Made by a program: the position numbers and the translations under genes. The notes under the pieces were generated by a model. The model saw only the letters and a program-made list of their open reading frames with translations, was not told where the DNA came from and ran no database searches. 64,000 nucleotides of DNA. Origin: Sphyrna mokarran. Lineage: Eukaryota. The DNA is taken from positions 46,810,001 through 46,874,000 of the forward strand of contig JAGIQG010000016.1 in the NCBI GenBank assembly GCA_024679065.1, given 5' to 3'. Below, piece after piece: positions 7,811 to 31,846 of this stretch (within the stretch, counting starts at the first letter, position 1; every line of letters starts with the position of its first letter).

Positions 7811-9979
7811 AATTCTTATAGGCAAGAGAGGCAAGTCTGGGTGTGTGCATGGAGATAAAGCTCCTCAAATTGGCAACAGTTACATATCATCCTGCTCTCT
7901 TCTGAGTTTCAAATGGGTTGGAAGTGAATTAGGGAACCCTCATGTAGCTCTCATGTAAGTGAGTTAGATATTCAAATAGATGAGTATGTTATGTTTTATT
8001 AGCTTTAACAGACAGTGCACTAGATCCCCGAGCTGTCAGGAACTTGCCAGGGTCACTGAGGTGAGTGCATAGCAGGGAGTACCTAACTCAATGAGACTGA
8101 AAGCGTGGGAAGTCTTTGATCGACACAACATGAAGAACCAATGGCGAGGTGAGAAGCTACTGCTCAAAGAACTCCTTGTCAAGGTGTGCTTTCGCTACTG
8201 ATAAGCAACTGCCAATTTCTTGAAAATCACCTCAAGGATCTTGCGCTTCACTCATCTTCCGATGTACTCCCTGCTGCCAACCTTCACTATAGCCCTACAA
8301 TGTTCACTCTCTTATGCTTAATCCTGAAATCAGGAAGTTGCTGTGTGGGATAAAGGTCTGAGAGATCTCCCACATGTCTTGAGAATGTAATGTATTTTTT
8401 TTGAATTTGTATCTAACAACAAATGGCCATATAAAAGTTCACAGTCCATTCAAGTGCAAGTTTAATAAAGGGTTAACACTGTTCATTTGCAGTTCAGAGC
8501 AAATCCTTCCTCTCTTCCCCCTCATTGTTTATTGCTTATTGGCAGACGTACAGATGTTGGAAGCATATTTCACTTGGGTTTCAAATAAAACTCCTGTTCA
8601 TACTTTGCTTTAGGGATCTGTAGCTTTCAGTAATGAAAGCTAATTAAGTCTGTGACATTTTCAAAAATAATAAGCTATCAGAAGCTAAGACATGTGATGT
8701 ATACAATATTCAACATTTACAGAATTGGCTGGAATGCTTCACATTTAAGTTGGTTAAAAGCTAAGCTGGATAACTAGCGGCCAAAACCAGAAGAGGAGCA
8801 AAGGCAGATTACATTGTGTATGCAAGTTTATTGCAGGATGAACGCCGAATGTTTAGCTAAAACACAAAATACAACTTTTATGAAATGTTTATAGCAGTCT
8901 GTGGACTAAAGCAGTATTTTCTTGATGGCATTTCTAAATAAACCTACTGGCATCCTAGATGCACCAATAACAGTTAATGCATGCAAAATACCCTGCTCTC
9001 CTATCTCTGACAATGATAAAAGCAATTAGGACATTAAGATTGGATAAAAATAAGCAAATCTTCATTTAGGTATCATATAATTTAATTGATCTATTGTTAT
9101 TGCATAAACCTAAAAAGGGGACTGTCAGTTGTTTCTGATAGGCTTTAATAGTGTTCCTTCTATGCATTCAAAGCTGTCACAATGTGAAAAAAGAATTGGC
9201 CCTGTTAACTTCCAGCAGCCGATACCATAATTTTTCATTGATACCTCCGTTACTTGTACTGTGCTATTGAGGATACCAGCATCGAATTTAAGATAAGTCT
9301 TAGGAAGTTATCCAGTGCTACATAATTCTACTTCAGACCAATATTGATTTATTCCTATTGAAAACCATCATTATTTGTTAATGCTGGCTGCAATAGCGAG
9401 ACAATCTTACCTCAGTCAATGGAGGGGGGCATGATATAGAATTCAGATAATAACTTCAGTAAATTACGGGAATCAGAACACATTAAGTAGAATTCTGCAG
9501 TGCTTTACCATTGCCAGTGAAGGTCCCATTTTTCACGTATTTAAAATCGACTAGCTTGTTTTCAAAGTATTGGTCCATTTGTAAATTATTGCAATGAAAG
9601 GTACCAAAATAAGTCATTCTGATCTTCCAAAAACAAGCAGGCAAATATGCACATTTGGAAAATTGTGTTTTCCCGTTTATATTTTAGTTTTGCAGCTGAA
9701 GGCTGAAGGAGATTAACGTTTGTCCTTAATTGTTTATAATTGTTATATCTCTTAACATAACTAGATCTATGTGATAAAGTCAAAGAATTTTAAGGTAATT
9801 GACTTAATGGGATGATGCATGAACATATTTTGATTTTGCTGGTAGAGATATAAATTTCAATAAGTTTTATTTAAAAAACATCAGTAGAAAGGTTGAATAC
9901 ATCTTTATGCTTGCCGCTGTGCACGTAATCCTATCCCCTGTTACCTTTCTGTTGCCAATTCTTTAGTCTTTCTGAGTGC

Positions 9980-10178
9980 TGATGTGGAGCTGCTGGCGTT
10001 GGACTGGGGTAGGCACAGTAAGTAGTCTCACAACATAGGTTAAAGTCCAAGAGGTTTATTTGGTAGCATGAACTTTTGGAGCATTGCCCCTTCATCAGAC
10101 TCACCTGATGATGGGGCAATGCTCTGAAAATCAAATAAACCTGTTGAACTTTAACCTGGTGTTGTGAGAATACTTACT
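9980..10178. mobile_element. Palindromic non-autonomous Penelope-derived element with hammerhead-like motifs and 14-bp TSD
   Basis: Inverted arms ~10015-10098 and 10105-10180 around loop ACTCAC; CTGATGA-GGGGC/GCTCT-GAAA at 10105-10129; direct repeat GTCTTTCTGAGTGC at 9966-9979 and 10179-10192. Confidence 0.8.
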
Positions 10179-10349
10179 GTCTTTCTGAGTGCCACTTAAC
10201 CCTCTTATTGCTGAGAAAAAAATTGCTGAGAGCAAAAAATTTATTAAACTGATGGAGACAATTAAACTACATTGGATCGTTTCATCACTCCACTGCAGAA
10301 GCAGAATATCAATCATAAACGAATTAGAAATTCAAATGAATACAATATC

Positions 10350-31140: not shown

Positions 31141-31751
31141 CTTGTTTTTACATTACGGATTCACTGCTATCTGTTTAGCAAACCACTTTAGTATCACTTT
31201 GTTTAAATGGCTTAAATTCAAATGGTATTTTCTTGAATCTTTATGTAGAACTTCGGCAATCTGGCTTGCTTTTCAAGGATGATCCGTATTGGGTGCAAGC
31301 CACATGAATAGCACACTTGTCTTCTAATTGCATCACTGCACATCTGTGCAACATCAGGATTTTTGCCCGCTAATTGAAGAATGTTTTAATAGCCGTTATA
31401 TCCTGCAAACTGTTGGCTAATGTAACCTAAGAACTGTTTTGAAGTTCAGATCTCCAATTTCCATTTAACCCCAGAAGGATTTTTAACAAGACCAGAAAGG
31501 GCTTCAGTTTGTTTGCCTGATGTTGACCATATCTCCCTCTGGATGGTTATTCTGAAGACTATACGTTTAATCTCCCTCAGCCTATCCAGTCTCACATCAT
31601 ACATTGGATTCATTATGGCATGGGGAAATAGAAAGCCCCCAGGTGTAGGCGGGAATTTACTCCCAGCCCAACTCCATCAGCCACTCTGAAATGGCTCGGA
31701 AGAAGTAGGTGGAATTTCTGTTCCTGAAGGAAGCTCTCTATTTCCCAATTC

Positions 31752-31846
31752 TGATATGAATATACCGGCATTGGACTAGGGTAAACCTGTTGAACTTTAA
31801 CCTGGTGTTGTGAGACTTCTTATTGTGTTTTCCCCATTCCACCAAT
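31752..31846. mobile_element. Internally deleted copy of the palindromic Penelope-derived element
   Basis: Left end CCGGCATTGGACTAGGGTAAAC joined directly to right arm CTGTTGAACTTTAACCTGGTGTTGTGAGACTTCTTA (compare 9980-10178). Confidence 0.75.

Follow-up and report, generated by a model that had tools for sequence, protein, structure and literature searches.

Results

Anatomy of the insertion in the window

The window, the whole 64,000-nucleotide stretch of Sphyrna mokarran DNA that was analysed, contains a short insertion in which two copies of one end of a Penelope-like element (PLE) stand head to head. An exact 14-bp direct repeat, GTCTTTCTGAGTGC, is located at 9966..9979 and again at 10179..10192 on the plus strand, as reported in a preliminary description of this DNA. 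Because the right repeat opens with two bases that match the end of the element as well, the target-site duplication (TSD) is given as 12-14 bp, not as the 14 bp originally proposed. On the minus strand, the tailed arm (9980..10098) represents 119 nt of the 3' pLTR end of a PLE, begins at base 1 of the hammerhead core and includes a 35-nt PLE tail (9980..10014) that is unpaired and present on this arm alone. The untailed, inverted arm (10099..10180, plus strand) stops 35 nt before the tail end and meets the tailed arm at the junction 10098/10099. The arms pair (10015-10098 with 10105-10180) in three gap-separated pieces of 21-26 nt with 88-95% complementarity. Inverted arms around a 6-nt loop had been described; the arms stand, but the supposed loop, ACTCAC (10099..10104, plus strand), consists of extra upstream bases of the untailed arm and includes the 5' strand of hammerhead stem I (CAC). 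Nor is the unit symmetric as first thought, the tail at 9980-10014 being a part of the element without a partner at the right. The unit is real and lopsided and is not a symmetric MITE-like element. It folds at -120.3 kcal/mol (z -14.2), a value equalled by none of 200 shuffles.

Hammerhead core motifs were found on both strands where previously located, and both are broken. The minus-strand motif (10074..10098) carries G12>A, the loss of the G before AAA noted earlier, together with C16.2>T and G1.1>A, and the 5' strand of its stem I has been truncated away. The plus-strand motif (10105..10129) is followed by the 9-nt deletion after GAAA already described, which takes out stem III, the cleavage triplet and the 3' strand of stem I. 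CTGATGA is separated from stem II by one extra base, which is A in the family and T in the plus arm of the window copy. Neither strand retains an intact core with a cleavage site, in agreement with the earlier judgement that the copy is dead. Scanning the unit against Rfam gave no hammerhead match at E ≤ 10, unsurprising for a motif that is minimal and broken, and returned only weak miRNA matches below gathering scores, reflecting the hairpin.

A shorter head-to-head insertion of the same family was found at 31741..31839 (element approximately 31752-31827), with the tail on the left only, an untailed arm of 46 nt and an 11-bp TSD with one mismatch; it is too short to hold the hammerhead. No convincing protein-coding ORF was present among the 13 stop-to-stop frames of at least 120 residues in the window (1-64000).

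Size of the family and structure of its insertions

A search of the genome of origin (2.77 Gb) with the window unit returned 4,558 candidates, of which 40 were scored and 30 aligned. The aligned relatives share a fixed left end and have a ragged right end and a variable centre. In these top 30 matches the majority base differed between left and right arms at three sites, all changes of the CpG type, and the core-CpG asymmetry was absent from copies selected by tail, which attributes it to query bias; apart from CpG decay, no fixed differences separate left from right arms. Since a search with the unit favours copies shaped like the query, loci were then chosen by the tail alone and from an unbiased sample of 80 evenly spaced 10-kb stretches (800 kb). 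The sample contained 55 insertion clusters, corresponding to ~190,000 genome-wide for all related subfamilies (95% interval 144,000-248,000). Head-to-head arrangements were found in 22 of the clusters, and in eight both arms were short, corresponding to ~28,000 genome-wide. Across related insertions arm lengths extend from ~40 bp to 2.9 kb, with more than 1.3 kb reached within the 800-kb sample.

Young copies with an exact tail match number at least 2,914. Ninety young loci picked by tail alone comprised 51 inverted, 29 single-arm and three tandem insertions and seven too long for the fetched DNA, the 29 being without an inverted arm at BLAST sensitivity. The same anatomy recurs at all scales: in the 200-bp units, in old copies with 0.95-1.5-kb arms reaching into endonuclease (EN) and reverse transcriptase (RT) sequence, and in young copies with 0.8-2.8-kb arms, the long arms of the latter being 98-99.6% identical. 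Three head-to-head insertions (L106, L216 and L278) have the tail on both arms.

The TSD was exact and 12-14 bp long in 38 of the 49 young inverted copies, a measure that can take in a few bases common to the element end. Duplications of at least 8 bp flanked 57 of 81 measurable young loci versus 0.4% of shuffled flank pairs; at old loci, duplications of at least 9 bp with one mismatch were found in 29 of 61 versus 1.1% in the control. Tabulated across copies the lengths vary from 8 to 14 bp, which argues against the fixed short TSD of DDE type and bears out the long, variable TSD of target-primed insertion that had been proposed. Independently of these measurements, one target word, TAATCTATAGCTA, or its complement was hit repeatedly (L171, L173, L197, L199, L200, L232, L257, L275 and L168); it lies apparently within another repeat and forms an insertion hotspot.

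The coding element

The Penelope origin suggested in the preliminary description was confirmed by comparison with ORF-linked Penelope ends. In L044, L107, L117 and L055 an end of the window type runs on without a break into fragments of the ORF; the tailed arm of L044 and L055 runs upstream into decayed EN and RT coding sequence, and the tailed arm of the window copy matches the end of L107, a copy with its arm extending into the RT/EN ORF, at 83% identity over 120 nt. Older ORF-linked copies have ends 82-87% identical to the arm of the window copy, versus ~70% for the younger subfamily, to which the intact ORFs belong. In two short decayed fragments Pfam gave one weak RVT_1 match and none for the EN piece.

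Young copies retrieved by protein search contain open frames of up to 863 residues, and of 894 in L152. Two ORFs matched RVT_1 above the cut-off (E 9e-9 and 1e-9) and GIY-YIG just under it (E 3e-4, 21 bits versus a cut-off of 22.6). A DKG motif and a Cys pair inside EN are present, and L151 and L152 contain a CX4CX2C linker. The closest named homologues of the young ORFs are shark proteins with 83-89% identity. In the full-length relatives L151 and L166 the start codon of the ORF comes immediately after the tail, and young ORF-bearing elements retain the head-to-head layout at 2-6 kb. By its sequence features the element is an EN+ PLE with a single ORF (RT and C-terminal GIY-YIG), a 35-nt tail, an inverted truncated copy and a variable TSD. 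A zinc-finger-like CX2-5CxxC linker between RT and EN marks Neptune and Nematis (PMC8557442); the linker found here is of Neptune type, and the vertebrate host points to Neptune over Nematis. The window copy is an old, very short insertion of such an element, composed of two pLTR ends head to head.

Among other members, L265 (G000:C1:47810205-47820200) contains a complete tandem unit of the young subfamily, 3,029 nt long, whose ORF has an internal stop. L276 and L251 carry the first 58-168 nt of the ORF fused to a pLTR end, a trace of template jumps close to where the ORF begins.

The hammerhead motif

The family was expected to carry a minimal hammerhead, and an intact core was retained in 171 of 283 matched arms, which are mostly young and related and so not independent. 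The extra A was present in 168 of these cores and GCT after GAAA in 156, while H17 was never G. Pair 2.1-1.1 was C-G in 141 arms, pair 2.2-1.2 was G-C in 112 and A-T in 42, and pair 10.2-11.2 was A-T in 118 and G-C in 36; compensatory changes thus distinguish subfamilies in stems I and II. The motif is, as judged from these alignments, a minimal hammerhead of dimer type with stem II, a palindromic stem III, an NUH site and a short stem I.

Self-cleavage from either strand, as earlier envisaged, runs counter to the folding predictions for the palindromic RNA. The predicted pairing of stem II was 0, and forcing it would cost 25-28 kcal/mol in the window copy and about 31 kcal/mol in three intact young stubs, so that the palindrome is predicted to bury its hammerheads. 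Stem II also folded weakly in single arms (p 0.02-0.32), and the folding model consequently does not show an active monomer either.

With positions counted backwards from the tail end, placing the core start at -129, the predicted cut lies at -100. Ten young arms started in -100..-85, just 3' of this cut, versus one in -122..-101, an excess with a binomial p of 0.012 against the 16 nt upstream for arms that are not independent. Among 50 listed of 575 centres near the cut, only approximately seven had both arms exactly at the cut by eye. The GC and the self-complementary word AGCT at the cut site could draw joins by microhomology, a confounder that leaves the arm starts at -100 suggestive of hammerhead cleavage in vivo. 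In L248 both palindrome arms seem to begin at the predicted cut site.

Evidence for two templates

The two arms were mapped in 60 two-armed young insertions, with long-ORF loci included and two duplicates dropped. Arm-to-arm differences at non-CpG sites that are polymorphic among other copies numbered 68, versus 3.1 expected from the private mutation rate; at least two were found in 15 insertions and none in 39. Discordance within insertions was 8% versus 42% for random pairs. In L156, L168 and L271 one arm carries a common four-site linked haplotype and the other a rarer one (7 of 69 arms). The untailed arm was the longer in 17 of 51 young insertions and the tailed arm in 19. A nearest-neighbour test, in which both arms were nearer to other loci in 15 of 20 cases, was dropped as evidence because a star phylogeny yields the same result.

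These data bear on the proposal that one cDNA, or an antisense template as put forward in PMC3846280, turns back and copies itself into the inverted arm. Such fold-back or self-priming would accommodate the correlation of arm lengths (Spearman 0.75), the nearly complete concordance of the arms of short palindromes, and at least six non-palindromic copies in which a snap-back-like 6-nt inverted copy of the core start stands at the window's junction. It is at odds with the excess of shared-variant differences, for which later gene conversion could be another source, with the two linked haplotypes and with the insertions in which the untailed arm is the longer. It also leaves unexplained why the second arm stops where it does, 30-46 nt before the tail end: 43 of 49 young copies have an inverted arm that terminates between -30 and -46, and a second RT start has been reported there in vitro (PMC11167929). 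Because the arms can carry different subfamily haplotypes, two primed cDNAs are favoured over fold-back, and simple fold-back is disfavoured for long copies on account of arm differences, haplotypes and longer untailed arms; taken over all copies it is an unlikely origin of the second arm. The concordance of short palindromes fits two RNAs of one source locus, and also fold-back or later homogenisation. For the window stub, the mechanism is deduced from its longer relatives.

Shared centres and re-copying

The preliminary description proposed a non-autonomous family of palindromes, each mobilised whole by PLE proteins through a hairpin RNA. As the main route this is not supported, since centres differ nearly copy by copy (49 of 51 young inverted insertions have distinct junction pairs) and arm lengths range from tens of bases to kilobases; as a minor route it retains some ground in three young pairs that share complex centres. 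L291 (G000:C1:73385177) and L292 (C1:79089946) have an identical 229-bp core, with a complex centre of which the genome has exactly two copies and a variant seen in none of the other retrieved loci of that background; the tail is on opposite arms and the flanks of this pair are unrelated by BLAST. L293 and L294 share a complex centre with the tail flipped, and L295 and L296 share one in the same orientation; in all three pairs the loci have different TSDs. Another complex centre tested was single-copy in the genome. The pairs were picked for matching centres and therefore give no rate.

Sharing is thus confined to pairs or small groups, and since the members of two of the three pairs differ in which arm is tailed, the unit was not copied end to end. 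The simple centre of the window copy recurs in 21 loci on several subfamily backgrounds, with the tail on the left in six (the window included), on the right in nine and on neither side in six. No sister of the window copy was found among these loci, all the others of which lack its deletion, or among the 40 best-scored matches, the best of which were 79-84% identical. With the hammerhead moreover predicted to be buried in the hairpin, propagation of a palindromic family as such is highly improbable. The three pairs are nevertheless unexplained by de novo joining, and one-off re-copying of palindromes probably occurs; its likeliest form is the use of an existing palindrome once as one template, with ectopic conversion as the alternative. 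L301 (G000:C2:63245379-63246500) contains, between a tailed and an untailed end, four alternating palindromic centres in one insertion, with hammerhead fragments on both sides of each, and looks like repeated back-and-forth copying.

The arm-start edge

Among young copies, 66 of 134 arms started within -152..-123, a 30-nt interval that ends ~20 nt upstream of the hammerhead, and only six within -200..-153. Genome-wide, 513 palindromes had both arms extending to -143 versus 54 to -166 (30-nt gap limit), and among 50 palindromes listed two or three passed -152 by eye. The same pile-up was present in the window's subfamily (29 of 50 arms). The peak was weaker among the mixed old subfamilies of the unbiased 800-kb sample, with 13 of 71 arms in a 28-nt window versus 11 in the 50 nt upstream.

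The edge coincides with an initiator-like word and is likely the 5' end of the element RNA. Assembled RNA contigs from three runs, which as contigs give no start sites, showed no joint at -148 among the matches listed. For a Drosophila element, an internal promoter and a transcript starting in the upstream pLTR are described in PMC2377424. Two other causes of the edge were considered. A splice acceptor at -148 is disfavoured, as no common upstream exon was seen by eye and arms often include -149 to -152; stalling of RT by RNA structure at -150 was rejected, the folds of two 150-nt stretches giving z about 0.

Long palindromes are unstable, and the stubs might accordingly be long palindromes collapsed by loss of their centres after insertion, which would also give correlated arm lengths. 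Single-arm copies begin in the same interval as palindromic ones, however; where the two arms are nearly identical the edge is sharp, and it coincides with no strong RNA structure, so that collapse is scarcely plausible. Origin as a DNA-transposon MITE with terminal inverted repeats can be dismissed, its palindromic shape being a superficial likeness in an element with asymmetric ends, a ragged untailed end, a variable TSD of 8-14 bp and physical continuity with an ORF for RT and GIY-YIG.

Discussion

Taken together, the results make it fairly probable that the window copy is a dead PLE stub with head-to-head ends, one of them tailed, which likely arose in a single event with both nicked target strands priming RT. 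The endonuclease would nick the two strands approximately 12-14 bp apart; one end would prime at the tail end, where the ORF starts, and the other ~35 nt closer to the RNA's 5' end. Synthesis of both cDNAs would often end by run-off at the 5' terminus of the transcript, which in the young subfamily would lie ~150 nt from the ORF start. After trimming, the 3' ends of the cDNAs would be united through microhomology or a short stretch of snap-back synthesis. A cDNA made from a tandem transcript, or one that jumps to the 3' pLTR, could give rise to long copies. The hammerheads would be passengers of the pLTR.

A wider reading, plausible but tentative, is that the stubs record, across the genome, how PLEs replicate. 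Two RNA templates would be copied from the two ends of one cut, with run-off at the 5' end in the manner of strong-stop cDNA and less often off a hammerhead-cleaved end at -100, and a fresh palindrome might be re-used once as template with a swap of the tailed arm.

The origin of the inverted arms and tail of PLEs is still open (PMC8557442, PMC11167929), and the family offers testable clues. Its young copies, at least 2,914, permit base-level tests of the start of the template RNA, of two RNAs per insertion, of hammerhead cutting in vivo and of stub re-copying. Annotators should be wary of classing palindromes of this kind as MITEs or miRNA genes, since they are neither.

The head-to-head layout itself is already published, and the window copy is ordinary decayed repeat debris. 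In a literature search confined mostly to openly available main texts, no description was found of a run-off edge or pile-up upstream of the hammerhead, of arms with two haplotypes or of flipped pairs. In L1 twin priming both target ends prime RT and non-overlapping parts of one RNA are inverted; in the window family, by contrast, both arms copy the same end, and a palindrome results.

EN+ PLE insertions include a 5'-truncated copy in inverted orientation and a tail of 30-40 bp (PMC8557442), and an inverted pLTR with tail and an 8-10-bp TSD has been described together with a proposal of self-priming (PMC3846280). The window family shares with these and with the element of PMC2377424 the head-to-head pLTRs, a tail at one end, TSDs of approximately 8-14 bp, heavy 5' truncation and partial tandems. 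It differs in that both arms of the window copy are cut to the last 120 nt, in the number of such stubs, which runs to tens of thousands, and in the sharp pile-up of arm starts upstream of the hammerhead.

For the minimal hammerheads of metazoan PLEs, dual motifs 100-700 bp apart on opposite strands have been reported (PMC4209133). These hammerheads have in common with the present motif the extra base between A9 and G10.1, a palindromic 15.2-16.2 without loop III and a short stem I, whereas both motifs of the window copy are broken. The Anolis PLE protein cleaves and extends both strands in vitro, with RT starting at two sites that bound the tail (PMC11167929), features that the Poseidon element PAc shares with the scheme proposed here. 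The hammerhead of PAc lies in the pLTR, as in the window family, and is dispensable for insertion in vitro. PAc belongs to the Penelope/Poseidon clade and has the tail inside the ORF; in the window family, by contrast, the ORF follows right after the tail and encodes the CX4CX2C linker.

Finally, non-LTR retrozymes (10.64898/2026.07.22.740005) resemble the window unit in being short, non-coding, hammerhead-bearing and PLE-related. They consist of direct repeats in tandem, or of single monomers of these, and carry type I hammerheads, whereas the window unit pairs two inverted ends and has a tail and a TSD. Lacking both short tandem repeats and a canonical type I hammerhead, the unit is not retrozyme-like in the sense first suggested.
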